Source: Candidatus Omnitrophota bacterium (GTDB lineage: Bacteria; Omnitrophota; Gorgyraeia; JABMRN01; RBG-13-46-9). Taken from it: DNA of 64,000 nt. A program made the position numbers and the translations under genes. The stretch is taken from the NCBI GenBank assembly GCA_013203315.1, contig JABMQJ010000001.1:49179-113178 (forward strand), given 5' to 3'. The notes under the pieces were generated by a model. It was not told the origin of the DNA and made no database searches. It saw only the letters and a program-made list of their open reading frames with translations. This document shows, one piece after another, positions 366-64,000 of this stretch (position 1 is its first letter; each line of letters begins with the position of its first letter).

Positions 366-386
366 AAGTACCTCCCTTTTTTACTC

Positions 387-403
387 TTCGACCATTTCAG
401 AAT
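387..403. repeat. Junction motif M copy (TTCGACCATTTCAGAAT)
   Basis: 16/17 match to the copies at 3862-3878 and 9521-9537. Confidence 0.8.
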
Positions 404-442
404 CTGAACTACTGTCTGCTAGCAGGTAGGCTCTACTTTGTC

Positions 443-1676: not shown

Positions 1677-1712
1677 TAAATTCGTAACCTTAGACCGTTT
1701 TCGATAAAATGA

Positions 1713-2351
1713 TTATCTATCTATCAGTTTACTGACCGTCTCCATGCAATGATTCACAATCTCTTTAATAATATTTAACATATCAAGATATCGGACCTTT
1801 GCCCATTCATCACAAATTCCCTTTGCTGACCTATCTATATGGTTAAGGCGACTTTTTTCTATTAATGCGTAGAGGGATGATTTATTTTTTAAAATATTTT
1901 TGCCTAACTTCCTATCATTAGTCTTCACCGCCACAATTGTAACTGACAAAATCTCTTCTATATTGTTACATAGCTCCTTATATTCTTGCAATGCTTTGTC
2001 ACTAAATAACAATTTTTCACTAACTTTATACTCAATTCGTTCTACTAAATCTACACATAGATCTCCCATCCTCTTAATTGCGCCGATAATGCTTACCAAA
2101 TCAATGACTATTTTTTTAGCTTTGCCTGATGATTTCTTTTTGGAAATTTCGATTGCTAAGGTAGTTAAATTAGTATAAGCTTCATTAATTTTTGTTTCAT
2201 TCTTAAGCACCTGATCTAAGAGCTTGATATCGTTCTTCATCAAACCATTAAAGTTAGTACGAAACATTATTTGAACCCGTTCTAACATTTCTATGGTCTC
2301 TTGTCTTAATGAAGCTATTTTTCTTAATTCAGCTTTATTTAATTTGGCCAT
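1713..2351 (-). CDS. Stand-alone PhoU-like helical protein (resembles the C-terminal region of Na/Pi cotransporters)
   Basis: All-helical; motifs KRMGD, FSDKALQE, HIDR..KGIC, YLDML. Confidence 0.65.
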   Translation of the reverse strand: MAKLNKAELRKIASLRQETIEMLERVQIMFRTNFNGLMKNDIKLLDQVLKNETKINEAYTNLTTLAIEISKKKSSGKAKKIVIDLVSIIGAIKRMGDLCVDLVERIEYKVSEKLLFSDKALQEYKELCNNIEEILSVTIVAVKTNDRKLGKNILKNKSSLYALIEKSRLNHIDRSAKGICDEWAKVRYLDMLNIIKEIVNHCMETVSKLIDR

Positions 2352-2365
2352 AGTTTTACTCCCTC

Positions 2366-2382
2366 TTTTACCGTCTCAGAAT
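2366..2382. repeat. Junction motif M, degenerate copy (TTTTACCGTCTCAGAAT)
   Basis: 14/17 match to consensus, same orientation, in the 5' region of the PhoU-like gene. Confidence 0.6.
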
Positions 2383-2404
2383 CTAAAACCTGCCTACTAC
2401 TAAT

Positions 2405-2433
2405 ATTGTAGGCTTGGCGTTGTTCAAAGTCAA
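2405..2433 (-). promoter_or_regulatory. Sigma70-type promoter of the PhoU-like gene
   Basis: TTGACT-N17-TACAAT on the minus strand. Confidence 0.6.
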
Positions 2434-2449
2434 GGGGCAAAAAAGTGAC

Positions 2450-2565
2450 ATTTTTGCGGGTACTGCCCTACGGAATGAGAGGGTATTGGCGTGCGGCTTG
2501 GCATTTAACGACGGAGCCCTGCCAATACCCTCTCATTCCGTTGATTGGCAGGGACTCGCAAAAAT
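2450..2565. repeat. ~116 bp nested inverted-repeat element (MITE/REPIN-like)
   Basis: Perfect 21 bp IR 2470-2490/2521-2541; outer 11/12 IR 2450-2461/2554-2565; left half recurs at 63921-63971. Confidence 0.8.
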
Positions 2566-2641
2566 ATGCTTTTATATTGAGGGGTTTTTTGTTATAATTT
2601 TAGTCATTCAAACCGATAAACTATCAAGAAGGAGGAAATCA

Positions 2642-3298
2642 ATGAAGATATTAATTTTAATAGTAGCGATGTGCATGATGGCAGCGAATGTGTTTGCCGA
2701 GGGGGATATGGCAACGCAGGCAAGTCCTTCGGTGACGATAAAACTTCCGACGCCCGAGACGAGCGGAGGCAAACCGTTGATGCAGGCGCTGAAAGATAGA
2801 AAATCGAGTAGAAACTTTAGTGACAAGGAGTTACCACAGCAGGTATTATCCGACCTTTTGTGGGCAGCGTTCGGCATAAACAGGCCGGATTCAGGAATGC
2901 GCACGGCACCCACAGCGCATAATATGCAGGAAATCTATATTTTTGTGGCAATGTCCAAAGGCCTTTATCTTTATGAACCAAAGCAGCATATATTGAAGCT
3001 GATGCTAGCCGAAGATATACGCGCTGTAACCGGTATGCAGGAGTTTGTGGCAACAGCACCGGTGAACCTTATCTATGTGGCGGAATATTCCAAGATGGCC
3101 AATATAGGCAGTGAGAAAGACTTTTACTCAGCTACAGACACCGGATTTATTTCTCAGAATGTATATTTATATTGCGCATCGAAGGGCCTGGCAACAGTCG
3201 TACGCGGCTGGGTAGACAGGAAAGCTCTGGGAAAAGCAATGAACCTACGCCCCGACCAGAAGATAATCCTTGCCCAGACGGTCGGGTACGAAAAATAA
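2642..3298 (+). CDS. SagB/ThcOx-type nitroreductase family protein with predicted signal peptide
   Basis: Start moved from the track (2414) to ATG 2642 after RBS AGGAGG; motifs LMQALKDRKSSR, RTAPTA, DTGFISQNVYL. Confidence 0.85.
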   Translation: MKILILIVAMCMMAANVFAEGDMATQASPSVTIKLPTPETSGGKPLMQALKDRKSSRNFSDKELPQQVLSDLLWAAFGINRPDSGMRTAPTAHNMQEIYIFVAMSKGLYLYEPKQHILKLMLAEDIRAVTGMQEFVATAPVNLIYVAEYSKMANIGSEKDFYSATDTGFISQNVYLYCASKGLATVVRGWVDRKALGKAMNLRPDQKIILAQTVGYEK

Positions 3299-3316
3299 CG
3301 AAGAGTTATTCACAGG

Positions 3317-3345
3317 GCAGGGCGCTCTTGGGGGTGCCCTGCTTG
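3317..3345. repeat. GC-rich hairpin B between convergent genes (terminator-like), duplicated at 8893-8918
   Basis: Stem GCAGGGCGC/GTGCCCTGC; 3320-3345 matches 8893-8918 at 25/26 nt. Confidence 0.75.
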
Positions 3346-3846
3346 CTATAGCACGCCTTTACCCTCTAGATATTCCTCGTAATAATCAGTTACTTTTCTG
3401 TTTTTCGTTGCGCTAAACGACTTATCCGCATGCATGGCCGGTTTATTGGCATGTTTTTTGGTTTTTTGCAAGAATGTTGGGTATTCAACCCGCGCACCGT
3501 GCACGCGAGAGCCATTTCGTACCCGGTTATCATGCGATATGACAGTTATGCTAGATGGCTCCTTCGAATTCTTCACCATGCTTATTATGCGATCATCCGC
3601 TGCTTCTTTGGCGCGCGTAAAAACGCAGTCAATGCCGCCTATCTTTGTGCGGGAATAATCCATAAAGTCGACATCCCTCCCGTCAAATACTATAATAATT
3701 TCCGCATTAACACGGCTACGCTTCCATCCCGCCACATGCATTGCCAGGGCGCTCCTGGCTTCGGCAAGGCTTTCCTTAAGCTTCGCCGTGAGCTCCGAAA
3801 TCCGGTAAATAACGTTATATCCGTCTAGTATAAATATCTTTTTCAT
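3346..3846 (-). CDS. NYN-domain (YacP/Rae1-like) putative ribonuclease
   Basis: Acidic NYN motifs ILDGYNV, IVFDG, AADD, VISHD. Confidence 0.85.
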   Translation of the reverse strand: MKKIFILDGYNVIYRISELTAKLKESLAEARSALAMHVAGWKRSRVNAEIIIVFDGRDVDFMDYSRTKIGGIDCVFTRAKEAADDRIISMVKNSKEPSSITVISHDNRVRNGSRVHGARVEYPTFLQKTKKHANKPAMHADKSFSATKNRKVTDYYEEYLEGKGVL

Positions 3847-3859
3847 ATCCGTGAGTTAT

Positions 3860-3878
3860 CTTTCGACCGTTTCAGAAT
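3860..3878. repeat. Junction motif M copy (CTTTCGACCGTTTCAGAAT)
   Basis: 19/19 identical to 9519-9537. Confidence 0.9.
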
Positions 3879-3907
3879 TTGGGCTCAACGCAGAACAGTG
3901 TATTTAA

Positions 3908-3936
3908 ATTATACCCCTAAAATAGAAACGCCTCAA
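3908..3936 (-). promoter_or_regulatory. Sigma70-type promoter of the NYN gene
   Basis: TTGAGG-N17-TATAAT; near-identical copy at 13993-14021. Confidence 0.6.
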
Positions 3937-3953
3937 GGAAAACCTTGAGGCGT
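3928..3953 (-). terminator. Rho-independent terminator
   Basis: 11 bp stem ACGCCTCAAGG/CCTTGAGGCGT, 4 nt loop, T-rich tail on the minus strand. Confidence 0.75.
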
Positions 3954-3978
3954 CACGGTACACTGTTTCGTTCAAATT

Positions 3979-4806
3979 TTATTCTATATCCTCGTCTTTC
4001 CCGTTAATGAATTGCAACATGGATGCTCTGTTTTTTTGAATACGGTTTGCAATAAGTTTCAGGGACCCTTCGTCTAACTCCGGTTTTTCTGTCTCGGTTT
4101 CGGATTGCGCGGGTGTTTCTGTAATCTTGGTGGTTACTGCAATTGTGCAACCCGTGTTACGAGACGCCTCGAGATCGCTTGAAAAAAAGTTAACCATATA
4201 CGGCTTAGGGTCGTGGTACACAATCGTCTGAACAAGCCAAGCGTCTTCATACCACATTTCACCCTTATCAAGAGGTTCTCCCGGCTGTGGCAGATGTGGC
4301 TGATTATATACAATTAACTGGACAAGCCGGCCATCCTTATAGTTATACTCGGGATAACCGTCTATTTCGCTGGGATCTATCGGAAGGTACTCCCTTATAT
4401 CCATATTGGGAAACTTCAGGTCCACCGGGTATTTTTCGTATTCTTTTTTTGGTATCAACGGTTCTCTGGGCAACTCTATTATCCTGGCAATCGGGTTTTC
4501 TAAGCCTGGCTTCGGAGCCAAACCGCGTACGGGATCGGACCCTATGTCTTTATTAGGGTATTTAATTATCTCGAAACCCTTTTCGGGCAGCTCGATATTA
4601 TCCCCTATTTCTTTTTTCACGATCAACTCTTTTTTCGTTTCTAGCACTTCCTTAAACTGTTTCACGGATCTGCTCGGAATTTCTTTGAGTTCTTTATCTT
4701 TATATGCATTCGCTTTGCCTTTTTCGGCAAGGCAAGGACTCTGAGAAACCACAATACCCAAACAGATTACGAGCACGATAACCTTAATTGTCATTCTGCC
4801 ATTCAT
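3979..4806 (-). CDS. Secreted Pro/Lys/Glu-rich hypothetical protein
   Basis: 275 aa with N-terminal signal peptide; no recognisable domain. Confidence 0.65.
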   Translation of the reverse strand: MNGRMTIKVIVLVICLGIVVSQSPCLAEKGKANAYKDKELKEIPSRSVKQFKEVLETKKELIVKKEIGDNIELPEKGFEIIKYPNKDIGSDPVRGLAPKPGLENPIARIIELPREPLIPKKEYEKYPVDLKFPNMDIREYLPIDPSEIDGYPEYNYKDGRLVQLIVYNQPHLPQPGEPLDKGEMWYEDAWLVQTIVYHDPKPYMVNFFSSDLEASRNTGCTIAVTTKITETPAQSETETEKPELDEGSLKLIANRIQKNRASMLQFINGKDEDIE

Positions 4807-4887
4807 TTCATTTACCCCCTTCTTGCTTACGGTTTTTAAAACTCTTTACTTTCGTGTCAAAAAAATAACTCGAATCTCATACTCTAT

Positions 4888-4912
4888 AACAAAATCACAG
4901 CTTGTTTACTCC
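4888..4912 (-). promoter_or_regulatory. Candidate ECF promoter GGAGT-N16-TGTT
   Basis: Same boxes and spacing upstream of the ECF sigma gene (6975-6999). Confidence 0.5.
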
Positions 4913-4936
4913 TGTTATTTTCTGACTATTTTATTC

Positions 4937-6370
4937 TTAATTTTGCTTACTTCTTATCATTTGAGCTTCAGGGCTTCTCGGGTATTTTCGTAATACAAGC
5001 GCATAATAGTGCTCTGCTTCCTTTGTATTATTCAGTCTTTCTTCATATATAATTCCCGTAGCATACAGTGCCATGCTTGCAAACGTAGACTCGGGATATT
5101 TACGAGAGACCTTTTGGAAAGTCTCTATCGCTTTCTCGGACATGCCAAGATAGTTGTAATAGGCACCTATAAAAAGGAAGATCTGTGGCTTATGGCCCAA
5201 ACTCGGATGCATGGCCATTATCGCTTCCAGCGTCCTAATTCCCTGCAAGTGTTTACTTCTGTCCTTTGTCTTTATCGCATTGTCTATTAACTCAATCGCC
5301 TTCCTAAGGTCAAGAGCGGCTTCTTTCGGCTCGAGGTCAGATATATATAATGGGGCGGGCCTTAAGAGCTCTCTTGTCCTGTATTTTCCATTACTGATTA
5401 AAAGCGCAACCTGGACTTTCTCTCCGATTTCATAGAACTCCGTCATTTCCTGCCATTCTTTTTCCAATAGCTGGCGCGGGGCCATGGGTGCCTCCCCCTT
5501 AAATACTTCTGTTGCCTCCCCGCCACCTAGTATTACCTGCTGCTGTTTAAGCGCTCCTTCTGGTATGAATGTTGACACAACCTTTACCCTGCCGTTTAAT
5601 ACACCAAGCCGCGTCATCATTGAGGGCTGTGCGGAAACATCTACTAAAAAATCAGTTCCCAGCGCCGTGGCTGTGGCTTCGGGAGTTGCCATGACAAAAC
5701 GTGACCCCTTGAATTTTTTGCTTAAACGCACCAGCGTTTTACCTTTTTTGAGGTTGTATACTGTCTTGCCGGGCACATATTTTGGCAATAACTTCGCTAT
5801 TTTTATTTCAGAATTCTGCTTAATCCTGACCCTGTATTTATTTGTATGCGCTATGTCAACAAAAGATCCACTGTCAACGGTTAGCGTATCGTTCTTGCCG
5901 AGTAGTAGCCCTTTGGTTCCTTTGGCCCACTTACGCCCCCTATGACTGTAAATCATTACTTTGCCCTTTACCGTCACAATCTGTACGGGCTGGACCACTA
6001 AATATGTAAGAACCCCGTATGCCGACACAAACAAAAGGAGCGTTACGACAACCCTTGCAAGCATGGGCGCAGGCAGGACAAAGACTTCCCGGGTTCTTTG
6101 AAGAACGCGAGTTACAATGAAACCTATCCTGTTTTCTTCCCTGCTTTTTAAAGTGTTACGCAGTTTTTGATTGAAGGCCCGGTCGAAAGAGGTAGACAGC
6201 TTTTCTCTATCCGCATGCCTAATGACCAGATTCGAATTCTTTAATAAAAGGGCTGTTTTCCTGCAGGATTCGCACTCGCTAAGATGGCTCTCTACCCTTT
6301 CCCTTTCAGGGAGAGAGCACCTCTGATCTATATATCTCGATAATAATTCGAAAGGCATTTTGTGCTTCAT
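4937..6370 (-). CDS. Anti-sigma factor: zf-HC2 + TM + FecR-like + TPR
   Basis: HLSECESC (HxxxCxxC), one TM, TPEATATALGTDF FecR motif, C-terminal TPRs (KYPESTFA, KYPRSPEA). Confidence 0.85.
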   Translation of the reverse strand: MKHKMPFELLSRYIDQRCSLPERERVESHLSECESCRKTALLLKNSNLVIRHADREKLSTSFDRAFNQKLRNTLKSREENRIGFIVTRVLQRTREVFVLPAPMLARVVVTLLLFVSAYGVLTYLVVQPVQIVTVKGKVMIYSHRGRKWAKGTKGLLLGKNDTLTVDSGSFVDIAHTNKYRVRIKQNSEIKIAKLLPKYVPGKTVYNLKKGKTLVRLSKKFKGSRFVMATPEATATALGTDFLVDVSAQPSMMTRLGVLNGRVKVVSTFIPEGALKQQQVILGGGEATEVFKGEAPMAPRQLLEKEWQEMTEFYEIGEKVQVALLISNGKYRTRELLRPAPLYISDLEPKEAALDLRKAIELIDNAIKTKDRSKHLQGIRTLEAIMAMHPSLGHKPQIFLFIGAYYNYLGMSEKAIETFQKVSRKYPESTFASMALYATGIIYEERLNNTKEAEHYYALVLRKYPRSPEAQMIRSKQN

Positions 6371-6954
6371 TTTACGCCACTTTTTTGCGGAATTTTAATT
6401 TTCTTTATAAACTGTTTCCGTGCCCTTGCAAGCCGCGAAGAAATTGTCTTCATATTTGTTTTCAGCACTTTGGCTGCCTCTTCGTAAGAAAGGCCTTCTA
6501 TTACGCAGAGCGCAATGACATCCCTGTAAAGCGGATGAAGGCTTTTCAGGGCATTTTCTATCGCTTCCTTGAGTTCCTTATTTTTCACGAAGGAATCTGC
6601 CGAAAACCCGTCTTTCGTCAATACGCCTTCGAGGTTGATATCCATGTCCCCTTTTCCCGCTCGACCGGACAAAGATACCTGCCGCATCGAACTCCTTTTC
6701 TTTAATTCGTTTTTTGCCAGATTCGAAGCTATTGTATAAATCCAGGCCTTAAAAAGCCCCCTGGGCTCGTATCTATTGATGTTAAGGTATATGTTTATAA
6801 AAACTTCCTGCGTAAGCTCTTCGGCAACCGCCCTATCGCCTATCTTTCTGTTGATGAAATTAAATATTCTTTCCTTGTACGCATTATACAATTCATCAAA
6901 GCAGGCCCGGTCGCCTTCCCTGAATTTCCTTACCAGGGCATCGTCTTTATTCAT
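6367..6954 (-). CDS. ECF sigma factor
   Basis: Region 2 AEELTQEVF, FKAWIYTIA; region 4 GLSYEEAA..SRLARAR; start moved to ATG 6954 (MNKDD) after GAGAGGG. Confidence 0.92.
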   Translation of the reverse strand: MNKDDALVRKFREGDRACFDELYNAYKERIFNFINRKIGDRAVAEELTQEVFINIYLNINRYEPRGLFKAWIYTIASNLAKNELKKRSSMRQVSLSGRAGKGDMDINLEGVLTKDGFSADSFVKNKELKEAIENALKSLHPLYRDVIALCVIEGLSYEEAAKVLKTNMKTISSRLARARKQFIKKIKIPQKSGVK

Positions 6955-6974
6955 TACCCTCTCTATATATATTA

Positions 6975-6999
6975 AACAATATTTTGTGCCGAAAACTCC
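6975..6999 (-). promoter_or_regulatory. Candidate autoregulatory ECF promoter GGAGT-N16-TGTT
   Basis: Matches 4888-4912. Confidence 0.5.
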
Positions 7000-7042
7000 A
7001 CGTTCTATAGACATTCTGTATCAGCTTGCTTTTTTTGTCAAT

Positions 7043-7083
7043 AAAAAAAACGGGACTGGTTTTTACCAAATCCCGTTTTTTTT
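7043..7083. terminator. Bidirectional Rho-independent terminator
   Basis: A8-CGGGA..TGGT/ACCA..TCCCG-T8. Confidence 0.8.
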
Positions 7084-7112
7084 GTTATCTGCGATTTAAC
7101 GCTGATTGTTAC

Positions 7113-8666
7113 TTATTCATCTTCCTCTTCGCTTCCTGTCTCATCTTCGGCATCGTATGAGCTGAAGGCCTCCAGGAGAATTATGGCGCCTTTACCGCCT
7201 GAATAAACAGCACCCGGCGTTTCCCGGAGAATACCTTTAAATGCTTCCTGCAACTTATTTTTGTGCTGCATCCATTCGTTTTCCAACAACGAAATCTTGT
7301 TAACCCGGCCTGTGTTGAAGTTTTTTGCGAAATCCATTTTTGCGGCAGGTACTTTTCCGCGTGTCCCAAACTTTTCGGCTTTTTCAAAAAGATTATTTGG
7401 CTTTGATGCGGATCCCCCCTCCTGTATCGGGCTTTGGTTTTTGCCGGTCTTATAGGCGTAAATCGGTTGCGCTTCATATGCTGCTTTTTGATCTTCGATA
7501 ACCTGTGGCTTATACAATTTAATATCTACGCTTTCGGTTCGCTCATCGTTTAATTTTCCGGCAATCTTTTGCTTGGTAACATTGAGGCCAACGAAAATTT
7601 CCTTTATTTCTGTTATTCTTCCGGGCTCTACGCCGGGTGGCCGCGTATATGTTACTGCTATTGTCCAATCATCATTGGTAATGGTAAGGGTGTATCCTCC
7701 GCCGTAAGCTGATTCTGACAAGCTCAAAACAGTATCTCCAAACTGTTGCGGCATGGGTTGTCCCCAATAGTTTCTGGCAAACCACACCAGTATGACTCCT
7801 AAAAGCTCGCGCATTTCACCGTCCATGCGGGATACGCCAAAACCGCTACTTTCCGGGCCTTCATACCGCGAATACCAGCCCCCGTGAGGCAGCCTATAAA
7901 AGTTTCTGTATTCTTCTATATCATCCAAATCATTGAACTCGCCATCCCCGTTTGTATCAAGGAGATTCTTTGCGAGTTCGTCCAAAAAGTCTCGTAAATC
8001 CTCGTCGATTTGACGCTGAAAAAGTTCGGCGAAGGATTCTTCAACGGGATCCCTTGCATCAACGGGATCCCTTGCATCAATAATAATAAGCTTGCTGTTT
8101 TCGTCGTCCCACTTAATCGTAAAACCATCACCGATCGGTATCTTCATAGAGACACCTTCGTCTTTCTCTTTATCCCCGTCCGGATCTCCGTTATTACCTT
8201 TAAGCGCTTCGAGCGCGCTTTCAAGATCTCTTAATCTAATATCTAATTTTTCACGAATATCTTTTTCCGAATCGTCATCCTGATATATACTGATTATATC
8301 TTCCAGAATATCCGAGAGCCCCTTGCTTGGCAGTCCCTTGTTTAGCAGATTTTCGATCTCTTTATTCAGCAAGCCTTTGTATGTTTCAAGGATTTTTGGC
8401 AAAGGCGGATCATTCTTCGGCTTTATCGTTATGGACAAGTTATCTCTGGATTTCTCAGAGAGACTATTTTTCAATTCCAGGTACTGACTCACCAGGGCTT
8501 CCCGTTGGGGGTTATATACAGCGACAATCTTGCCGGAAACCTTTGCCTTGGGCTTCTCCGAAATGCTTTTTGCGTGCGCAAAATCACAGGGAAGCGTCGA
8601 AGAGACAAAAGCCACCACCACTGACATCGCTAAAATCCTATTAAATATTCTTTTCCTGTTTAACAC
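7113..8666 (-). CDS. Large secreted hypothetical protein with an EF-hand/dockerin-like Ca-binding loop
   Basis: GTG start after GGAG; signal peptide ending AHA; DTNGDGEFNDLD loop; acidic tail. Confidence 0.7.
   Translation of the reverse strand: MLNRKRIFNRILAMSVVVAFVSSTLPCDFAHAKSISEKPKAKVSGKIVAVYNPQREALVSQYLELKNSLSEKSRDNLSITIKPKNDPPLPKILETYKGLLNKEIENLLNKGLPSKGLSDILEDIISIYQDDDSEKDIREKLDIRLRDLESALEALKGNNGDPDGDKEKDEGVSMKIPIGDGFTIKWDDENSKLIIIDARDPVDARDPVEESFAELFQRQIDEDLRDFLDELAKNLLDTNGDGEFNDLDDIEEYRNFYRLPHGGWYSRYEGPESSGFGVSRMDGEMRELLGVILVWFARNYWGQPMPQQFGDTVLSLSESAYGGGYTLTITNDDWTIAVTYTRPPGVEPGRITEIKEIFVGLNVTKQKIAGKLNDERTESVDIKLYKPQVIEDQKAAYEAQPIYAYKTGKNQSPIQEGGSASKPNNLFEKAEKFGTRGKVPAAKMDFAKNFNTGRVNKISLLENEWMQHKNKLQEAFKGILRETPGAVYSGGKGAIILLEAFSSYDAEDETGSEEEDE
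8041..8080. repeat. 18 bp in-frame tandem duplication
   Basis: TCAACGGGATCCCTTGCA x2, encoding DARDPV twice. Confidence 0.9.
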
Positions 8667-8721
8667 TTTTTTAACTCCGTTCTAAAGTGGGTAAAAAAAA
8701 TACCCCTCACACACGGTGTGC

Positions 8722-8735
8722 CTTGTATATACAAG
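8722..8735. promoter_or_regulatory. Perfect palindrome CTTGTATATACAAG, GntR/HutC-like operator
   Basis: Abuts and overlaps an extended -10 (TGGTACACT) on the minus strand upstream of the 517 aa gene. Confidence 0.5.
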
Positions 8736-8892
8736 TGTACCATAAATTAAAGGGTCTTGTGGGGGGAAATATCTTACTTTTTTATAGCCTAACAAGGTTA
8801 AGTGGCATTAGGAATTATTCTAGGGACGGTTCTCGCTAAGTCTTTTATTTACAGTTGGTTGCGGATTGCTTCATCTACTCTTGTACCGTTTC

Positions 8893-8918
8893 GGGCGCTC
8901 TTGGGGGTGTCCTGCTTG
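8893..8918. repeat. Second, truncated copy of hairpin B
   Basis: 25/26 identical to 3320-3345; directly abuts a partial M-like motif at 8876-8892. Confidence 0.8.
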
Positions 8919-8919
8919 T

Positions 8920-9153
8920 TCACTTCCCCTTTGACCCTCTAATTGCCCAGAGGATAAGACGGATAAGTAAATAGACGGGGTATCCGAGAAGCATAAACAT
9001 GAACGCGAATGTGACTATTTGCTGACCGGCTTGTTCACCAACTATTGCAAACTCGGTCATACGCAGGGCAAATATGACAATTGCGGATATGACCACGATG
9101 CCGAGCAATATGAGCCCTTCCTTCTTTATGATTTTTTTTATACCATCTTTCAT
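8920..9153 (-). CDS. Small 2-TM membrane protein (77 aa)
   Basis: Two hydrophobic segments, basic ends, GGAG RBS. Confidence 0.65.
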   Translation of the reverse strand: MKDGIKKIIKKEGLILLGIVVISAIVIFALRMTEFAIVGEQAGQQIVTFAFMFMLLGYPVYLLIRLILWAIRGSKGK

Positions 9154-9166
9154 CCAGACATCTCCT

Positions 9167-9240
9167 TGCCTGCCGGCAGGCAGACTTTAATTAGGCCCCA
9201 GGGACAGTTCTTAATCTGTCCCTTGCCTGAACCGTTCCTA
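9167..9240. repeat. Cluster of REP-like palindromes
   Basis: TGCCTGCCGGCAGGCA (9167-9182), AGGGACAG-N8-CTGTCCCT (9200-9223), GAACCGTTCCTA (9229-9240). Confidence 0.75.
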
Positions 9241-9255
9241 TTTTCAATTTTTGAC

Positions 9256-9483
9256 TTACAGCTCGAACTTGCTTTTATCTACTCTCGCGGTTTTAGAAAA
9301 TTTTTCTTTAACACCATCCAGAGTATCCTGGAGAGCCTTAAATATTTTCTCCACCTCTTCCGGCGTGGATTCGTAACCGGCACCCGATAAATTACCCAAC
9401 AGTTCTATCTTCTTTATCGCATTCGTTACCCTCTGCGTCGCGAGTCTTTTAAACTTATCATGTTTGCTTTCAGATTCTGCCAT
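9256..9483 (-). CDS. Small helical hypothetical protein (75 aa)
   Basis: Strong RBS AGGAGG; KFKRLA..RV..AI..I.LLGNLS...Y motif. Confidence 0.75.
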   Translation of the reverse strand: MAESESKHDKFKRLATQRVTNAIKKIELLGNLSGAGYESTPEEVEKIFKALQDTLDGVKEKFSKTARVDKSKFEL

Positions 9484-9518
9484 ATTTTCCTCCTTTTTTT
9501 AAAATCGTTATTGTTTAG

Positions 9519-9537
9519 CTTTCGACCGTTTCAGAAT
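9519..9537. repeat. Junction motif M copy
   Basis: 19/19 identical to 3860-3878. Confidence 0.9.
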
Positions 9538-9563
9538 CCGGAAATTCTTATCAGCTCGTGCAT
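9531..9563 (-). pseudogene. Orphan gene start / 10 aa mini-ORF MHELIRISGF
   Basis: AGGAGG RBS and ATG right after the upstream stop; the TGA lies inside motif M. Confidence 0.45.
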
Positions 9564-13564: not shown

Positions 13565-13984
13565 TTACTCGCCGATCAGCTTAACGAGGATGCGTTTCCG
13601 GCGGCGTCCGTCAAATTCACCGTAGAAGATCTGCTCCCACGGCCCGAAATCAAATTTACCTTTAGTAACAGCGACGACTACCTCGCGCCCCATTATGGTT
13701 CTTTTAAGATGCGCGTCGGCGTTGTCTTCGCCGGTAAGATTATGCTTATATTGCGAGATAGGCGCGTGTGGGGCAAGTTTTTCGAGCCACTTTTCAAAAT
13801 CTGCGTGAAGGCCTTTTTCGTCATCGTTTATAAAAACGCTCGCTGTTATGTGCATTGTGTTTACAAGGCACAGGCCTTCTTTTATGCCACTTTTTCGTAG
13901 GATCTCTTCAGCCTCGGGGGTTATGTTTATAAACTCTCTCTCGTTTTTCGTATTAACCCAAAGGTATTCGGTATGTGTCTTCAT
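13565..13984 (-). CDS. yjbQ: YjbQ/UPF0047 family protein
   Basis: [25 protein letters not shown]. Confidence 0.9.
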
Positions 13985-13992
13985 GTATACTA

Positions 13993-14021
13993 ATTATACC
14001 CCTAAAAATAAATAGCCTCAA
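13993..14021 (-). promoter_or_regulatory. Sigma70-type promoter, probably leaderless
   Basis: TTGAGG-N17-TATAAT, 8 nt from the yjbQ ATG, no SD. Confidence 0.6.
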
Positions 14022-14827
14022 GATTTATCTAAGGTTTCGTCGAACCAATCGAGTATTAACTTTCTTAGCTTATCGGGATAGAATTGAACAAGCCTTTCCG
14101 CATGAAGGCCGTTTTCTATTATTTCTATTTTTTTGTAAGTCGGCGCCGCATTGTAAAGCGTTTCGGAATGATAGTCTTTAATAATCCAGTCTTTGTCCCC
14201 GTGTATGAAAAACATCGGCGTACGCTTTACTAAGGTTATCGTATCAATGGGTTTTTTCTTCGGAAGAAAAATGTGATCAACCCTTGCGCCCTTTCCTTCC
14301 CATTTACAATCGATATTGTCTTTTAAATCTGATAGCATCCCGGGTTCCCAGAAGTGAAAGTTCACACCCTTAAAACTCGAGGGACAACTTATCAGTATCA
14401 TGCTATCCACGTCATCTCTTTCGGAGACAGCGTTTATTGAGGAAGCGGCGCCCAATGAAAAGGCTAATATGCCTATTTTTTTGTATCCTTCAAGTTTTGC
14501 GTAATCCAATATAGCGTTAATATCCAAATGTTCCCGGGCCCCCCACGAGTATTTTCCCGTGCTCTTTCCGTGCCCCCTTAAATCAAATATTATGACATCG
14601 TGTTCGGACAAGAGTAAATCGACGGTCTTCCGCATCCATCGATTTTCCATGCTGTTATAGAACCCCGGGCATACTACAATTACAGAGTCGAATTCATTTT
14701 TGTACTGCTCGTAAGCAATTGTAATATTATCTTCCGTATAAAGCGTGCCGCTTGTGCAGTTCGGGTTACTCTCCGCATACGCACTTAAAGATAACGTTAC
14801 TATTGCAAGTATAATTATTATCCGCAT
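14018..14827 (-). CDS. Secreted alpha/beta hydrolase
   Basis: Signal peptide; DLRGHGKS, AFSLG nucleophile elbow, HGDKD, GLHAE. Confidence 0.85.
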   Translation of the reverse strand: MRIIIILAIVTLSLSAYAESNPNCTSGTLYTEDNITIAYEQYKNEFDSVIVVCPGFYNSMENRWMRKTVDLLLSEHDVIIFDLRGHGKSTGKYSWGAREHLDINAILDYAKLEGYKKIGILAFSLGAASSINAVSERDDVDSMILISCPSSFKGVNFHFWEPGMLSDLKDNIDCKWEGKGARVDHIFLPKKKPIDTITLVKRTPMFFIHGDKDWIIKDYHSETLYNAAPTYKKIEIIENGLHAERLVQFYPDKLRKLILDWFDETLDKS

Positions 14828-34118: not shown

Positions 34119-34907
34119 CTATCTTTTCCTGTATGAATCAAGAAATGAGTCGCAGTATATATTTTTATTCAAAATAAGCTCTGAGGTGATCGCCGCATTC
34201 ATGAGTTCCTTATCAAGCGGGTCCATGATGGCCGCTGTTAAACCGTTCGTTATCGCCATCACAAGATATGTTCTGTTTATAAGCGGGCGCGTTTTCGTGC
34301 CTTGAGAAATATTACTAAGCCCCACGACTGTTTTAGGCGCCGGATCGCAAAGAAGTTTAAATTCCTTTATGGCTTCGAGCACTTCTATGCCTTGCGCCTG
34401 CGCGACATTTACTGGAAGTACTATCGGATCCAGGTAAAGATCGCTTAAATTAAATCCTATTTCCTGGCATTTCGTTATAATTGTTACCGCGTGTTCGGTT
34501 CTTTCGTTTTTATCACGTGGGATTCCTTTTTTGTCCATCGTAAGTCCTATAAGAAAAGCGTTGTATTTCTTCGCCAGCGGCACAATTGTATTCAACTTTT
34601 CTTCATCGGCATTTGCGGAATTTACCATGGCCTTTTTCTTTACGAGCTTAAGCCCCTCTTCTATAACGTCCGCTTTTGTGCTATCAAGCGCAAGAGGGAC
34701 GTCGGTTACCTCCTGAATTGTTTCCACAAGCCACTTCATGGCGTCTTTCGGGTTTTTTTCGTACGGTCCTGTGTTTACATCAAGCATTCCCGCGCCGGCG
34801 GCGACCTGGTCCTTAGCTACTTTTTGTATAACCTTTTTATCACGATCCGCTATCGCTTTACCTACGGCTTTAAACATTCCGTTTATCAATTCACCGATTA
34901 CTAGCAT
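34119..34907 (-). CDS. acsE: Methyl-THF:corrinoid Fe-S protein methyltransferase
   Basis: IGELING, LALDST, GLSNISQ; located in the acs cluster. Confidence 0.9.
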   Translation of the reverse strand: MLVIGELINGMFKAVGKAIADRDKKVIQKVAKDQVAAGAGMLDVNTGPYEKNPKDAMKWLVETIQEVTDVPLALDSTKADVIEEGLKLVKKKAMVNSANADEEKLNTIVPLAKKYNAFLIGLTMDKKGIPRDKNERTEHAVTIITKCQEIGFNLSDLYLDPIVLPVNVAQAQGIEVLEAIKEFKLLCDPAPKTVVGLSNISQGTKTRPLINRTYLVMAITNGLTAAIMDPLDKELMNAAITSELILNKNIYCDSFLDSYRKR

Positions 34908-34926
34908 CTATCCTCCTAGTTTGTGC

Positions 34927-35889
34927 CTATCCCTTCTTCATCAAACTATCGATATACTTCCTGACTTCCTCGACCGCCTTTGGATGGCGCATGACCAGGA
35001 TGTCGCCGCCTGTCTGCAGCACGGCTACAGCGGTTTGCGCCTCCCACAAAGGACCGCGCTCCGATTCATCGCCCCATTCCGGATGTTCGGATGAAGTGGC
35101 TTTTGCTTCTTTAGCGCGCCACGCTTCCTGCCCGACAAAACAGATAAAAGGCATGGAAAGCATTTTATCGCCAAGTAGAGCCGCGTTTCTCGCGCGCTCC
35201 ATTATGGAATAGGCATATTCTAATCCGTATCCAAGAGCACCTATTGTTGGGTTTACCACGATCCTGTCTAAGGGAAATCCCATCTCGCTTATTAAAATAT
35301 TCACCTGTTTGGCTATGTTTATGTCTATGGGGGACTCTCCTATTATGTTGTGGCCGTCCGCAAGACAGCTTGCCGCAAGGGTTTTATAGTTTTTCTCAGT
35401 GGCATCGCCTATCAGGCACTTCTCGCCTTTGGCAGCCTCGCTTGCTTTTGCCAGGACAGTGTTGTCTTTTTCATCGTCACCTGATCCTAAAATTATAAGC
35501 GGGACCTTCACTGCCTGCAAAATATCTTTAACTAATTTGGCTGCGTCCGCAGCGGATTTATTGCCGAAGTCGGGATGCGTTCCTATCAGCTTTACGCATA
35601 TGAGCCGGGCCTTATACTCTTCAACACATTTAACCGCCCACTTAACAGGGTCTTTCAACGCATCGCCAAAAGGTTTTTTTAAAACTTCGGGCCAATCAGT
35701 GGGCTCTGCGTCCAAAACCTCCATCGCGATAACAGGCGCATGCGGAATGTCGCCTTCTTTAAAAAGAAACGGGAGCGCTGTCTCGCCTCCGACCGTAATT
35801 TGTGAAGTACGGGTCCCGCCTTCTTTTTCCGTAGCGCCGAGCGTAACGGTATTGATCTTACCTGTCCAGCATTCCTTCATTAAATCCAT
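34927..35889 (-). CDS. acsD: Corrinoid Fe-S protein small subunit
   Basis: GGETALPF, SPIDINIAKQ, ALGYGLEY, MRHP. Confidence 0.93.
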   Translation of the reverse strand: MDLMKECWTGKINTVTLGATEKEGGTRTSQITVGGETALPFLFKEGDIPHAPVIAMEVLDAEPTDWPEVLKKPFGDALKDPVKWAVKCVEEYKARLICVKLIGTHPDFGNKSAADAAKLVKDILQAVKVPLIILGSGDDEKDNTVLAKASEAAKGEKCLIGDATEKNYKTLAASCLADGHNIIGESPIDINIAKQVNILISEMGFPLDRIVVNPTIGALGYGLEYAYSIMERARNAALLGDKMLSMPFICFVGQEAWRAKEAKATSSEHPEWGDESERGPLWEAQTAVAVLQTGGDILVMRHPKAVEEVRKYIDSLMKKG

Positions 35890-35894
35890 ACTTC

Positions 35895-36653
35895 CTACCT
35901 CTTTTCAGCTACCGGAATTTTTATTGTTTCTTTTATCGTGTTTAGCAATACATTATCTTTTAGCTCGAAAACAGATTTATTATTTATAGCCGCATCTTCG
36001 ATTTCGGCGTTTTGCGGCAAAACTATTTTTAAATTGAGTCCCACTTTATCTATTTCTGCCCGGAGTGGACCCAGATCACCTTTGGATTTATTTAAAATCA
36101 GGGAGCGCTCTTTAGTTTTCACTTTCAATTCATCTACGAGTTTTGAAATTCTTGCCGCGGCCCTTATCCCGATAACGGAGCTATCACTTATCATGAAAAG
36201 CCTGTCAATATCGCGAACCAGGCGCCTGGAAAGATGCTCCATGCCGGCTTCGTTATCAATAACAACGTGGGAGTAGTTTTTCATGAGCTTGGTGATAAGC
36301 GCGCGGAGCATGTTATTAACGAAACAATAGCATCCCGGCCCTTCTGGACGACCCATGCTTAAAAGGTCGAAGCCATCTTCTTCGTTTAGAGATTCCTGAA
36401 CTTTTAAATTTATGAACCTATCCTTGGTCATGCCTTTCGGAACCTGGTCCGGGTCCTTGGAGATGTCGTCTATAATATCTACAATGGTTGATATGTCTTT
36501 CACGCCCAACAATTCTCCGAGATTTGAGTTGGGATCCGCGTCAATGGCCAGAATTGAGCCGGCATTCTCTTCCTTAAGCGCCCTTATAACCAAAGACGCA
36601 AACGTTGTCTTCCCCGTTCCGCCTTTGCCCGCTATTGCTATTATGTTACTCAT
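35895..36653 (-). CDS. acsF: CooC/AcsF-type nickel-insertion ATPase
   Basis: GKGGTGKT, GPGCYC, DNEAGMEH. Confidence 0.88.
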   Translation of the reverse strand: MSNIIAIAGKGGTGKTTFASLVIRALKEENAGSILAIDADPNSNLGELLGVKDISTIVDIIDDISKDPDQVPKGMTKDRFINLKVQESLNEEDGFDLLSMGRPEGPGCYCFVNNMLRALITKLMKNYSHVVIDNEAGMEHLSRRLVRDIDRLFMISDSSVIGIRAAARISKLVDELKVKTKERSLILNKSKGDLGPLRAEIDKVGLNLKIVLPQNAEIEDAAINNKSVFELKDNVLLNTIKETIKIPVAEKR

Positions 36654-36657
36654 TTTT

Positions 36658-38589
36658 TTACTTCTTCACGCTCGGAAACTTCTCAAGGTCCGTGTGCGGG
36701 AAAAATAAACTCGAGACATACTCGTCCATGTACGACGGATCCTTGCTAAGTTCTATATAAGTCATCTTTCTGGCGATTTCTTCGGCTTTCTTCATGGTGT
36801 CATACGAAAGAAGTATTTCACGCGAACCGATAAGAGAGCTATTTCCCACGAATTTGAATTTGCTCCTGTCCAAGTCCGGTAAAAGCCCGATCGAGATCGC
36901 GCTATCTATGTCAAGAAATGTACCGAATCCGCCCGCTATATAGATTCTATCCAAATCACTGAATTTTAGATCGAATTTTTTAACCAGGATCGCGGCAGCC
37001 GAGTAAATTGCGCCTTTTGAGCGTTTTATGTTTTCGATGTCGGACTCTTTTATGACGATGTCATAGTCGCAGCAGGCGTCCTTTTTGAAAACAATAACAT
37101 ATTCGTATTCGCCGTCTTTTTGCCTGATTCTTTTGGTTTTCAGGTCACGGTTTATCTTACCGTCTCTTTTTACTATGTCTCTTTTGAACATACAAGATAT
37201 AAGATCTATGTACCCCGAACCGCAAATGCCCATTGCTTTTTCATCACCTTTTACTTTTACCTTGGGCTCAAATTTAGAATTTATCTCTACCCTTTCAACG
37301 GCCCCTTTGATCGCCCTCATGCCGCAGGATACACCACTGCCTTCGAACGCGGGCCCTGCTGAGGCAGAACAGCACGCCATCCATTCTTTATTGCCCAAAA
37401 CTATTTCGCCGTTTGTGCCGACGTCTATAAGAAGTGTGAGTTTGTCCTCATTATTTATGCCACAGGCTACCGTGCCCGCTATTATGTCGCCTCCAACATA
37501 AGTGCTGACACCGGGTATGCAAGCCAAGAGGCCCCTCGGATGAACTTTTATGCCGGCTTCGGACGCCCTTATGACCGGAACAAAGTTTGCGGTTGAAACA
37601 TAAGGCTCCCTTCTTATGTGCGTGGGATCGACTCTTAGCAAAAGATGGATCATAGTTGTGTTGCCCGCGCAAATAACGCCCGTTACCTGGTTTAGCGGAA
37701 CGCTATACTCTGTAGTTAATGCCCTTATGATCGAATTCATGTTGTCTATGACAGCGTGGTGCAATCTTTCCAGGCCGCTTTCCTCTTTCGCGAACACGAT
37801 TCTCGTGATTACGTCATCCCCGAAAATTATTTGTTTATTATAAGTTGCTTTTGTGCCGAGTATCTCTTTGGTGTTTAAGTTTATGAGCTGTCCGGAAACT
37901 GTTGTGGTGCCTATATCAAAGGCGACGCCGTAGTTTTCCCCGGAGGAATCGCCGGGCTCTATAATTACAACTTCGGTCGTCTCGTTTCTTTTGCCGAGCG
38001 TCACTGTTACCTTCCAGTCACTGTGCCGGAGAACACTTCCAAGCCTTCGCAGATTCCTGAGGCCGGTCTGCATCATGGGAATATCGTATTTTTCTTTTAT
38101 TTTCCTTACCAGGCGCTCATAATCGCTTACGCTGTCATCCAAGGTCGGCGGCGGCAACTCAAGATAGATCTTCGTAGATATTGGGCTGTGCGTAAATATT
38201 TCCTCGCTTATGATTGGCTTTCCTTTGTCAATGTCTACCGCTTCCGAATACATGCCTTTTAAGCGGTGCAGCCTTGCTTCTTCATCTTTAACTTTAGTTA
38301 GATCAAGCCGGGACTCCCTGGGAACAAATACCTCAAGATTATCCTCGACAGTAGTAAGGCACGCTAAGACGTAACCTTTTTTTCGTTCCTCGTGCGAAAT
38401 TCTTCCGGTGGGCTCTGTCCTGAATTTTCCCTTTTTAATTACAACCTTACACCTTCCGCACACACCCTCGCCGCCGCAGCTTGAATTTATAAAAAGCCCG
38501 CACGATACGGCAGCCGCCAATAGGTCAGCGCCTTTTTTTACTTCCGCAATCTTTCCTGAAGGTTTAAATTTTACTTTGAACTTTTCCAT
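36658..38589 (-). CDS. acsV: Corrinoid activation/regeneration protein (RACo/ASKHA)
   Basis: CGGEGVCGRC 2Fe-2S, DIGTTT, DVGTNGE, AGPAFEG, AGGFG. Confidence 0.9.
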   Translation of the reverse strand: MEKFKVKFKPSGKIAEVKKGADLLAAAVSCGLFINSSCGGEGVCGRCKVVIKKGKFRTEPTGRISHEERKKGYVLACLTTVEDNLEVFVPRESRLDLTKVKDEEARLHRLKGMYSEAVDIDKGKPIISEEIFTHSPISTKIYLELPPPTLDDSVSDYERLVRKIKEKYDIPMMQTGLRNLRRLGSVLRHSDWKVTVTLGKRNETTEVVIIEPGDSSGENYGVAFDIGTTTVSGQLINLNTKEILGTKATYNKQIIFGDDVITRIVFAKEESGLERLHHAVIDNMNSIIRALTTEYSVPLNQVTGVICAGNTTMIHLLLRVDPTHIRREPYVSTANFVPVIRASEAGIKVHPRGLLACIPGVSTYVGGDIIAGTVACGINNEDKLTLLIDVGTNGEIVLGNKEWMACCSASAGPAFEGSGVSCGMRAIKGAVERVEINSKFEPKVKVKGDEKAMGICGSGYIDLISCMFKRDIVKRDGKINRDLKTKRIRQKDGEYEYVIVFKKDACCDYDIVIKESDIENIKRSKGAIYSAAAILVKKFDLKFSDLDRIYIAGGFGTFLDIDSAISIGLLPDLDRSKFKFVGNSSLIGSREILLSYDTMKKAEEIARKMTYIELSKDPSYMDEYVSSLFFPHTDLEKFPSVKK

Positions 38590-38599
38590 AAATGAGTAT

Positions 38600-39937: not shown

Positions 39938-39949
39938 ATATTTCCTCCC

Positions 39950-42127: not shown

Positions 42128-42145
42128 CGGTTAAATCTCCCTTTC

Positions 42146-43438: not shown

Positions 43439-43479
43439 ATTCGCTCCTCCACACACTTCCGTGTGTGGTTTCCTTCGTT

Positions 43480-43980
43480 TTACTTCTTTTTCTTAGTTAG
43501 CTTTTTTTCAAATTCTTTTTTTGTGCCGGCAAAAAGCGCACCTGTCGGGCACGTAGCGACGCACGCGTAGTCGTCCCTATCCGGACAAAGGTCGCATTTA
43601 ACGGCTATGTGTTTGGCGCTGTCCCCGACTATGGCGCCAAAGGGGCATGTCATTACGCACATCCAGCATCCCACGCATTTTTCGTTATCCTGGAGTGTCG
43701 CGCCTGTTTTTTCATCTTTTGAAAGGGCCCCGCTCATGCAAGCCGTTACGCACGGCGCTTCCTTACAATGCTGGCAATGAACAGAAATGGATTTACCGTT
43801 TATCGCCGATACAGTGAGCCTTTTTCTCGGCGTATCCTTTTCAATTATAGAGTTGGCCAAATCTTTGCTCTTCGAATGCTCAACTGCGCAGGCAAGTTCA
43901 CACGTTCTGCATGCTACGCATTTTGTAACATCGCAATATATCGTGATGTCTTTATCTTTTTTTACCTTTACCTTGCTCAT
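43480..43980 (-). CDS. cooF: CooF-like 4x[4Fe-4S] electron-transfer protein
   Basis: CVACRTC, CQHC, CVGCWMC, KCDLC. Confidence 0.88.
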   Translation of the reverse strand: MSKVKVKKDKDITIYCDVTKCVACRTCELACAVEHSKSKDLANSIIEKDTPRKRLTVSAINGKSISVHCQHCKEAPCVTACMSGALSKDEKTGATLQDNEKCVGCWMCVMTCPFGAIVGDSAKHIAVKCDLCPDRDDYACVATCPTGALFAGTKKEFEKKLTKKKK

Positions 43981-43982
43981 GT

Positions 43983-63841: not shown

Positions 63842-63920
63842 ATTTTTCACCCTTCTTTTGGCTCACAATATAGCACAACTCCCCCTCCACTTCAAGTAAA
63901 TTAATAAGAAGCGAGAGAGG

Positions 63921-63971
63921 TACGGAATGAGAGGGTATTGGCGAGGGCGGCTTGCAATTAAACGACGGAGC
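63921..63971. repeat. Half copy of the 2450-2565 element
   Basis: 23 bp identical to 2469-2491 plus AACGACGGAGC identical to 2507-2517. Confidence 0.85.
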
Positions 63972-64000
63972 TCTTTCTTCTTCAAAAAATTGTAGTAAGC

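Follow-up and report, generated by a model that had tools for sequence, protein, structure and literature searches.

Same-strand repeats in the intergenic spacers of an Omnitrophota genome are probably decayed half-units of a REPIN/RAYT-like repeat family

We analysed a 64,000-nt stretch of an Omnitrophota genome (hereafter the window; positions G000:C1:49179-113178 of G000, a 1.5-Mb assembly of 32 contigs), in the left part of which two short repeats, called B and M here, lie between small genes on either side of a block encoding an extracytoplasmic function (ECF) sigma factor. The names that homologous proteins carry in public sources place the genome in Candidatus Omnitrophota. Coordinates given without a contig name are positions in the window. 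The original prediction had taken B and M for the left and right ends of two cassette-like modules with exchangeable cargo, inserted serially at one site. The first module opens with the hairpin B1 (3304..3347, core 3317-3345), which has a GC-rich stem of 8-9 bp, lies between the convergent genes for a nitroreductase (plus strand) and an NYN protein (minus strand), and ends at the stop codon of the latter. The NYN gene, the cargo of this module, encodes a YacP-like NYN domain protein of 166 aa (3346..3846, minus strand; PF05991, 7.7e-22), and 13 nt from its start codon is the outer end of M1 (3860..3889, plus strand). The ECF block follows (3979..8666, minus strand), with genes for a 275-aa protein, a FecR/zf-HC2/TPR anti-sigma protein (477 aa), the ECF sigma factor (215 aa), and a 517-aa protein. 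Beyond it, a partial copy of M called M' (8874..8892, plus strand; CTCTTGTACCGTTTC) is joined directly to the second B copy, B2 (8893..8918), and is followed by the gene for a predicted 77-aa membrane protein (8920..9153, minus strand), by two GC-rich hairpins (9164..9222; fold -31.7 kcal/mol, z -3.23), by a 75-aa open reading frame (ORF; 9256..9483, minus strand), and by M2 (9519..9539, plus strand), the similarity of which ends after CAGAAT. The first of the two hairpins, H, reads CCTTGCCTGCCGGCAGGCAG, and the second GGGACAG-N8-CTGTCCC. No family match was found for the 77-aa and 75-aa ORFs.

The repeats are not products of chance. In a motif search of the window against 100 shuffles, the B 26-mer (3320-3345 and 8893-8918, 25/26 identical) gave two matches at up to 3 mismatches, and none of the shuffles gave any. 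The M 19-mer (3860-3878 and 9519-9537, 19/19 identical) has a third copy at 385-403 with 3 mismatches; the shuffles averaged 0.03 matches, and none of the 100 reached three. Much of the predicted layout stands as well: the cargo ORFs are those named, B adjoins their stop codons with gaps of 0 nt (stop at 3346) and 1 nt (stop at 8920), the ECF block lies between the modules entirely on the minus strand, and a partial M sits directly against B2, the left arm of which is gone. The description of B as a hairpin holds for B1 (-17 kcal/mol, z -3.99) but not for B2, which lacks that arm and does not fold (-3.4 kcal/mol, z +1.06). The statement that the window carries no recombinase also holds, as a Pfam scan of 74 ORFs (23+51, window and left flank) found no recombinase or transposase. 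Both repeats extend beyond the lengths first described and recur to the left of the window, where a copy at C1:46749-46792 shares 44 nt with B1 at 86% identity.

These sites belong to a larger array. Across 12.5 kb (G000:C1:46.2-58.7 kb) there are eight M-type half-units, all on the plus strand, together with four copies of B. The M-type sites, within C1:47003-58715, are at 47003, 48617, 49118, 49563, 51549, 53038, 58052 (M'), and 58697, and one further site lies at the contig end C6:1. The array ends at NifS/NifU genes and at C92/U32 peptidase genes. Read along the minus-strand genes, a spacer runs from a stop codon through a hairpin (H or B) and M to the next start codon, and the order of repeats along the stretch is B, B, M, M, M, M, M, B, M, M', B, M. 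B is followed by M in three of four cases, compared with 2.7 expected for random order (a hand calculation), and only three of the eight M copies are preceded by B. The pairing of B and M as two ends of a module is thus at chance level, and the idea of serial insertion at a single site finds no support. A better description of what is repeated is a spacer element between two genes, made of M and a hairpin (H or B) after it; what had been called a module is the hairpin of one spacer joined to the M of the next. In the upstream copies M reads aCTCTTCGACCGTTTCAGAAT, continues with CTGAAC, which completes the palindrome TTCAGA-A-TCTGAA, and leads into the GC-rich hairpin H (CCTGYCTGCCGGCAGG...).

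Comparison across 14 genomes of the taxonomic family (G000 and 13 relatives) suggests that M is no cassette end but the terminal ~20-35 nt, at the outer side, of a repeat unit ~37-66 nt long. We built an nhmmer profile from 12 units of five genomes and a covariance model, R1, from 20 full units, leaving the array copies out of both. The profile detects, at E 2e-16 to 1.8e-06, 12 full units of G000 (on C2, C3, C9, C10, C18, C19, and C24), ten of them arranged as five inverted pairs (C3, C10, C19, C24, and the two sides of a gene on C18), and its next matches in that genome include copies of M from the array (E 0.012, 0.087, 0.13, and 0.51). R1, applied without filters to an 18-kb stretch (L106 coordinates), has five M sites as its top five matches (E 0.0015-0.06), the other three being at E 1.2-1.4; all eight M sites are matched on the plus strand, from model position 2-3 onward. 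M1 matches best (R1 E=0.0015, model positions 2-30; nhmmer E=0.012), and this limited span does not support an idea, formed by eye, that M1 is a full 62-nt unit. M2, which is a proximal end only, matches at E=0.025 (model positions 2-21), and M' at E=1.4 (L106 14059-14070). Two further half-units on the plus strand lie to the left of the modules. One, at 2366..2394 (L106 7544-7572, E=0.06, model positions 3-35), is degenerate and lies upstream of a PhoU-like gene (1713-2351, minus strand); its counterpart in a relative is longer and has kept the hairpin. The other, at 385..430 (L106 5565-5585, E=1.3), consists of the half-unit TCTTCGACCATTTCAGAAT, the palindrome, and a remnant of the GC hairpin.

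The terminus of the unit is TTGTACCG or TTCGACCG, and M' (CTTGTACCGTTTC) is a near-canonical form of it, matching TTGTACCGTTT and being identical to TTGTACCGTTTGC at 12 of 13 positions; the units on C24 read GTACCGTTTCAGATTT. Counted genome-wide with R1 at E <= 0.01, the family is present in 12 of the 14 genomes (11 of 13 relatives and G000) in 1 to 41 copies, with 41 in G003, 36 in G012, 14 in G001, 13 in G000, and 10 in G004. Many copies in G003, G012, and G001 are ~37-nt proximal halves arranged in ~78-nt inverted doublets, and such doublets fold as single-stranded DNA into long hairpins of about -35 kcal/mol (z about -12.5). A ~140-nt doublet of G000 reaches -50 kcal/mol (z -14), and doublet folds overall range from -34 to -50 kcal/mol (z -12 to -14). 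In position H matches the hairpin at the centre of the doublets (AACCTGTCCC-loop-GGGGACAGGTT), and M plus H thus looks like a doublet minus most of its second half. The exact M 19-mer also occurs in G004, in tandem with an inner unit beside a gene for a Y1 transposase. An exact-motif scan of 185,579 species genomes gave 14 matches, compared with ~17 expected by chance (a hand estimate), two of them in Omnitrophota (L093 and L100). A by-eye proposal of an RNA structure in the units of G003 and G012 was dropped, the stem in two copies not being kept in the other four. As a side observation, the end of one contig (G000:C3:49838-49885) and the start of another (G000:C9:1-85) carry the same repeat doublet, so these two contigs are probably adjacent in the genome.

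The units are associated with Y1 transposase genes resembling REP-associated tyrosine transposases (RAYTs; REP, repetitive extragenic palindromic sequence). In G000 the gene (C18:80273-80767) stands between inverted units at 80154-80217(+) and 80752-80815(-), and inverted units flank the Y1 gene in G009:C126 (~62 nt each, as in G000) and in G004:C9 (with M-like outer ends) also; none were found flanking the Y1 genes of G001, G003, and G012. The C18 protein matches PF01797 above the cut-off. Its best NCBIfam match, REP_Tyr_transpos (NF047646), is at 75.5 bits, below the cut-off of 80, and the G009 homologue, with 62% identity to it, scores 82.9 bits. A profile of 31 homologues searched against PDB finds E. 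coli TnpA-REP first (4er8; E 1.5e-06, residues 1-144), with the HUH, WQxRF, and YIxxNPV stretches aligned, and the IS200/IS605 TnpA of 2xm3 behind it (E 8.7e-04); a PDB search with the single C18 sequence returned nothing at E <= 0.01. There is one RAYT-type gene in G000, and a second Y1 gene, on C25, is IS200-type (NF033573, 69.5 bits).

The orientation of the array requires care. That the cargo genes share an orientation says nothing special, because the minus strand carries 62 of the 67 ORFs of at least 90 aa found across the window. On the plus strand of C1, GC skew is negative in 11 of 11 bins; given this and the near absence of plus-strand genes, the single orientation of M is one orientation relative to replication. 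Elements of the IS200/IS605 type are described as having one orientation relative to replication and strand-specific single-strand transposition (PMC6006769), and the strand bias of M would fit transposition of that kind. A reading of the stretch as a foreign island was rejected, its GC content and tetranucleotide distance falling within the range of the genome (percentiles 0-82).

We consider it likely that half-units of a REPIN/RAYT-like (or 'TIRtron'-like) repeat family, now decayed, form a local cluster on one strand in the intergenic spacers of the stretch. The full units, as inverted doublets that fold into long hairpins, would be non-autonomous elements comparable to REPINs or to miniature inverted-repeat transposable elements (MITEs). 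The Y1 enzyme would have seeded the half-units, transposing single strands in a strand-specific way, and they would then have decayed; the hairpins that were retained may now act as 3'-end or terminator structures, and the repeats may be substrates for recombination that reshuffles neighbouring genes.

Several observations weigh against this interpretation. The array copies of M are short and diverged, none is among the 13 G000 hits of R1 at E <= 0.01, and the best genome-wide nhmmer E value of an array copy is only 0.012 (M1); their link to the family is drawn from ranking, model position, strand, and the tandem copy in G004, and its genome-wide significance is weak. With ~13 full units and 8 relics, the repeat is over-represented, but its copy number is far below that of classic REP systems, and the unit does not carry the GTAG tag of REPs. 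A Y1 gene with flanking units was seen in only 3 of the 12 unit-bearing genomes, and not in the two with the highest copy numbers, G003 and G012. B is matched by neither the nhmmer profile nor R1, and its resemblance to the unit's distal end (TTAAG(A)GTG..CCC) was judged by eye. The closeness of M to start codons could mean a function in expression. Finally, a tight cluster of a single diverged subtype in one orientation is atypical of dispersed REPINs, and the model by itself does not explain it.

The closeness to start codons also speaks for a different explanation, in which M is a cis-regulatory signal (an operator, part of a promoter, or a 5' leader) shared by a local regulon, for example that of the ECF sigma factor, and B and H are ordinary terminators. 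In six of eight cases M ends 12-35 nt upstream of a start codon, on the coding strand (the other two are 92 and 209 nt away): M2 is 35 nt upstream of the 75-aa gene, and the half-unit at 385..430 is 19 nt upstream of the start, outside the window, of a 121-aa membrane-protein gene. The 6-1-6 palindrome of the upstream copies is typical of a site bound by a dimer, and the hairpins adjoin stop codons. The second half of that palindrome is missing from M1 and M2, though, no conserved -10 element follows TGAAAC in the copies, and the region upstream of the sigma gene has a sigma-70-like TTGACA-N17 site and no M. A narrower reading of M as an ECF-sigma or sigma-54 promoter was discarded on the same grounds, there being no conserved -10 or -12 element after the motif and no M upstream of the sigma gene. 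An Rfam scan of the 20-kb locus L001 returned no match at E <= 1. The unit is moreover reversed in G003 and G012, where the M end abuts stop codons, compared with start codons in G000, and the same sequence ends the hairpin doublets and the flanks of the Y1 genes. The opposite orientations fit a DNA element better than a signal in a transcript. We therefore regard a primary regulatory role as unlikely; a secondary, co-opted one may exist. As to termination, a scan of the stretch called 17 terminator-like sites, compared with 14.5 +/- 4.2 in shuffles, which is no enrichment, and most of the calls at the B and H hairpins were for the plus strand, which is not that of the genes. The 275-aa gene has a canonical intrinsic terminator of its own (3927..3954, minus strand; L106 9132-9105), a 12-bp stem followed by a T run.

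The gene order of a relative bears on the predicted cassettes. Contig C45 of G001, a genome of the same genus (locus L009), carries the ECF block, the 75-aa gene, and the NYN and PhoU-like genes at 87-95% identity (89% DNA identity for the 75-aa ORF) in a different order. In L009 this is ECF block, 94-aa ORF, 75-aa gene, M, NYN, PhoU, M; in G000 it is PhoU, M, (repeat, nitroreductase, B), NYN, M1, ECF block, M'B, 77-aa gene, hairpins, 75-aa gene, M2. The gene-order differences end at or near repeats. M1 and its right flank stay with the ECF block in L009, and a Memo/AMMECR1 gene takes the place of NYN on the other side of M1. The slot of the 77-aa gene holds an unrelated ORF of 94 aa (E=32; joint 13980->14434). 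Assembled sequencing runs from two other studies (X5 and X6) contain contigs with the same joints as L009, in which the 75-aa gene is followed by M and then NYN, with 12 identical letters in between. The order seen in L009 is thus no artefact of assembly, though one of the two runs may depend on G001. The part of the prediction that has repeats surround exchangeable cargo is to this extent borne out: the repeats are real, clustered, and in one orientation, the neighbouring genes are exchangeable, and the rearrangements are real.

The other part, that a module moves with its ends, is not. The NYN gene sits elsewhere in L009 (91% aa identity) and in the X5 and X6 contigs. In L009 the conserved block is essentially the ORF alone, an M-type repeat instead of B follows its stop codon, and M is missing ahead of its start codon; B, cargo, and M therefore do not travel as a unit, and a cassette model with paired ends is not supported. 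True mobile cassettes could still be imagined as B...M or direct M...M segments that are excised and re-inserted in the same orientation by a site-specific recombinase (integron- or Xer-like) or by a Y1 enzyme acting on two same-strand ends as in IS200/IS605. Speaking for them are the reordering of the same genes with orientation kept in L009 and in the X5 and X6 contigs, the filling of one slot by unrelated small genes, the mix of small, unrelated functions in the cargo, and small segments between direct units elsewhere: in G003:C55 (L010 10085-11020) a MazE-like/ParE-YoeB-like toxin-antitoxin pair lies between two direct units 875 nt apart, and in G001:C44:825-1579 (L126) a segment of ~540 nt lies between two doublets. 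Against them stand, besides the behaviour of NYN and the chance-level pairing, the composition of the region, which is not foreign, and the absence of any tyrosine recombinase (PF00589) or Y1 transposase gene from contig C1; G000 has three tyrosine recombinases on other contigs, two of them Xer-sized and one adjoining a tRNA fragment. Only two arrangements are known. Five of seven ends of homology blocks fall within 31 nt of a repeat, which is not independent evidence, because all ends are in spacers and most spacers hold a repeat. Runs of the population that holds the window's own form (X1 and X4) showed no joints when searched as contigs, in which rare variants do not show. Taken together, this makes mobile cassettes improbable. 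In their pairing B and M behave as independently placed repeats, but not in their orientation, which is biased.

The same comparison yielded observations on the history of the locus. A 7.4-kb block (L009 5528-12945, window 1712-9500) is 87-95% identical to G000, and the remainder of G001 and the left 5.5 kb of L009 are ~67-76% identical or unmatched, which points to a recent transfer or to misbinning of the contig. The block runs from M1 to an M with a dispersed repeat beside it. The first gene of the ECF operon departs from this identity (window 7113-8666, L009 8998-10746; 517 vs 582 aa): its products are ~35% identical and have no firm family, and it looks like a fast-diverging or replaced gene beside a conserved sigma/anti-sigma pair. 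G001 outside C45, at ~67-76% DNA identity, is poorly syntenic with G000 (6 of 46 proteins from C1:36-72 kb have a match in 60 kb of G001:C48) and could for this reason provide no empty sites. For the G003 toxin-antitoxin segment an empty site was sought in G012, and no orthologous locus was found there. A metagenome scan with the anti-sigma protein gave one 3.4-kb locus, which ends short of the repeats.

We treat B as a separate small family of GC hairpins that takes the place of H next to stop codons; it is perhaps a GTAG-type REP and probably serves as a 3'-end structure. G000 has five members, four in C1:46275-58096 and a palindromic relative at C28:25864. The relative belongs to a type of perfect ~30-nt palindrome, AGTAGGGCAC[A/T]CTTAAG[A/T]GTGCCCTACT, with GTAG/CTAC ends and 11-6-11 geometry, GTAG being found in these palindromes and not in the M-bearing unit. 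It occurs once per genome in five genomes of four genera (G000:C28:25864-25898; G012:C1:1069841-1069872; G003:C70:38761-38792; G009:C179:3210-3241; G013:C6:9949-9980), in unrelated, non-syntenic contexts. A guess made by eye, in which B was a doublet formed by the unit's distal end, was set aside, as B had no match with either model. The copy at G000:C1:46765-46790 (L001 8765-8790) overlaps the 3' end of a 67-aa ORF resembling 4-oxalocrotonate tautomerase, the last six codons and stop codon of which lie inside the hairpin.

The geometry of the palindrome, its single occurrence in G000, G003, G009, G012, and G013, and the two Xer-sized tyrosine recombinases of the genome raise the idea that B copies are Xer (dif-like) sites and the modules insertions of the pdif type or of integrative mobile elements exploiting Xer (IMEX). 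The genes to the two sides of the C28 palindrome, however, are co-directional, and GC skew is positive to either side, with no switch of skew or gene strand, and in G012, a single contig of 1.43 Mb, the palindrome is 272 kb from dnaA; a dif-like role is unlikely on both counts. The B copies of the array are moreover degenerate, chromosomal, and, as judged by their flanks, in one orientation rather than alternating, and B2 is without one arm. We consider an Xer-based explanation very improbable.

Among known systems, the closest parallels are with REPINs, hairpin-forming doublets of REPs that single-copy RAYTs spread, as presented in PMC3116915, PMC3337134, and PMC5581495. Shared with REPIN-RAYT systems (P. 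fluorescens SBW25, and E. coli REPs and bacterial interspersed mosaic elements with TnpA-REP) are a single Y1/HUH gene closest to TnpA-REP, its position between inverted copies, extragenic repeats that are mostly hairpin-forming inverted doublets, inheritance across genera of one family, and the occurrence of single or partial copies and of local clusters. The differences, the missing GTAG tag apart, are a unit of 37-66 nt instead of 20-40 nt, tens of copies instead of hundreds, a G000 protein just under the NF047646 cut-off, and a host in Omnitrophota; a literature search, which did not cover supplements, found no account of REP/RAYT in this phylum, one paper naming both terms aside. TIRtrons (TIRYT), RAYT-like genes lying between long terminal inverted repeats (TIRs) that form moderately abundant families, are set out in Di Nocera et al. 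2013 (PMC3733652). They resemble our system in that the Y1 gene has ~62-nt inverted repeats, of a kind unrelated to GTAG REPs, on both sides and that these repeats form a moderately abundant family elsewhere in the genome, and since it has no GTAG tag the unit is closer to the 'TIR' type outlined there. A one-strand array of diverged half-units over eight consecutive spacers has no counterpart in the cited passages of that description.

Elements derived from IS200/IS605 and resembling MITEs or palindrome-associated transposable elements (PATEs), together with mosaic intergenic repeat regions like those of Neisseria (mentioned in PMC3733652), share with the array hairpin-bearing ends that are recognised on one strand, a replication strand bias, and intergenic clustering with other repeat families. 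Unlike IS200/IS605 elements, the doublets are perfectly symmetric, as REPINs are, and have no distinct left and right ends, and no TnpB or omega-RNA-like partner was seen. As the original prediction itself held, neither integrons nor pdif modules match. Like integron arrays, the stretch has small unrelated genes in the same orientation and a recurring structured element, with order varying and orientation kept; unlike them, it has no IntI, attI, or Pc nearby, and its orientation is a property of the whole window. An attC site (an imperfect inverted repeat of 57-141 nt, RYYYAAC...GTTRRRY, with R''/L''/L'/R' boxes and extrahelical bases) differs from the spacers, which by eye are two adjacent small hairpins, and in a comparison by eye, made without an attC model, GTTCAGA/TCTGAAC do not fit the GTTRRRY/RYYYAAC boxes. 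With pdif modules and Xer-dependent elements the stretch shares short palindromic sites beside exchangeable small modules and a B core resembling an 11-6-11 site, but its sites are chromosomal and do not alternate, and the best copy is not at a skew switch.

Other repeats occur nearby. A second, unrelated dispersed repeat of ~100-130 nt is present at 2450-2545 and 63919-64000 and at G000:C1:44226-44298, and has an internal inverted repeat (2470-2490 vs 2521-2541). At least 14 of the 32 contigs match it at an end or close to one (for example C5, C10-C14, C16, C22-C24, C30-C32, and the end of C1), and L009 has it at both ends. It adjoins M-type units at 2366-2394 and C6:1-64 and probably breaks the assembly. 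A 39-nt direct repeat (TGTAT..AATTATACCCCTAAAA..GCCTCAAG, 79% identity) lies just outside two gene ends: its first copy (3899-3937), after M1, contains a minus-strand TATAAT with TTGAGG 17 nt upstream, and its second (13984-14022) is at the start of a UPF0047 gene; in G012 a unit is found upstream of a UPF0047 gene too (L041). Further along, the window holds a complete-looking CO dehydrogenase/acetyl-CoA synthase (Wood-Ljungdahl) gene set (34119-47517) and a formate-THF ligase gene (49000-50703), and heme and thiamine/sulfur-carrier genes lie upstream. Such metabolism is ordinary in this phylum and has no link to the repeats.

It is conceivable, if improbable, that the half-units are working ends, with the Y1 enzyme, or recombination that it starts at single-stranded hairpins, excising and re-inserting chromosomal segments bounded by two same-strand units. 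Such activity would explain the differences in gene order, the unrelated genes in one slot, the toxin-antitoxin pair of G003, and the 7.4-kb block of 87-95% identity between genomes that are otherwise ~70% alike, and would amount to an integrase-free, integron-like shuffling and exchange of small genes in Omnitrophota. On the reading that we favour, decayed half-units of a REPIN/RAYT-like family, a REPIN/RAYT- or 'TIRtron'-type system is present in small Omnitrophota genomes, with a unit, a doublet form, and a distribution (12 of 14 genomes of the family) as given here. Decayed half-units in successive spacers can mimic conserved cassette ends, which calls for caution in scans of raw sequence. 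The stretch is a natural test bed for the question of whether such repeats merely mark changes in gene order or take part in them.

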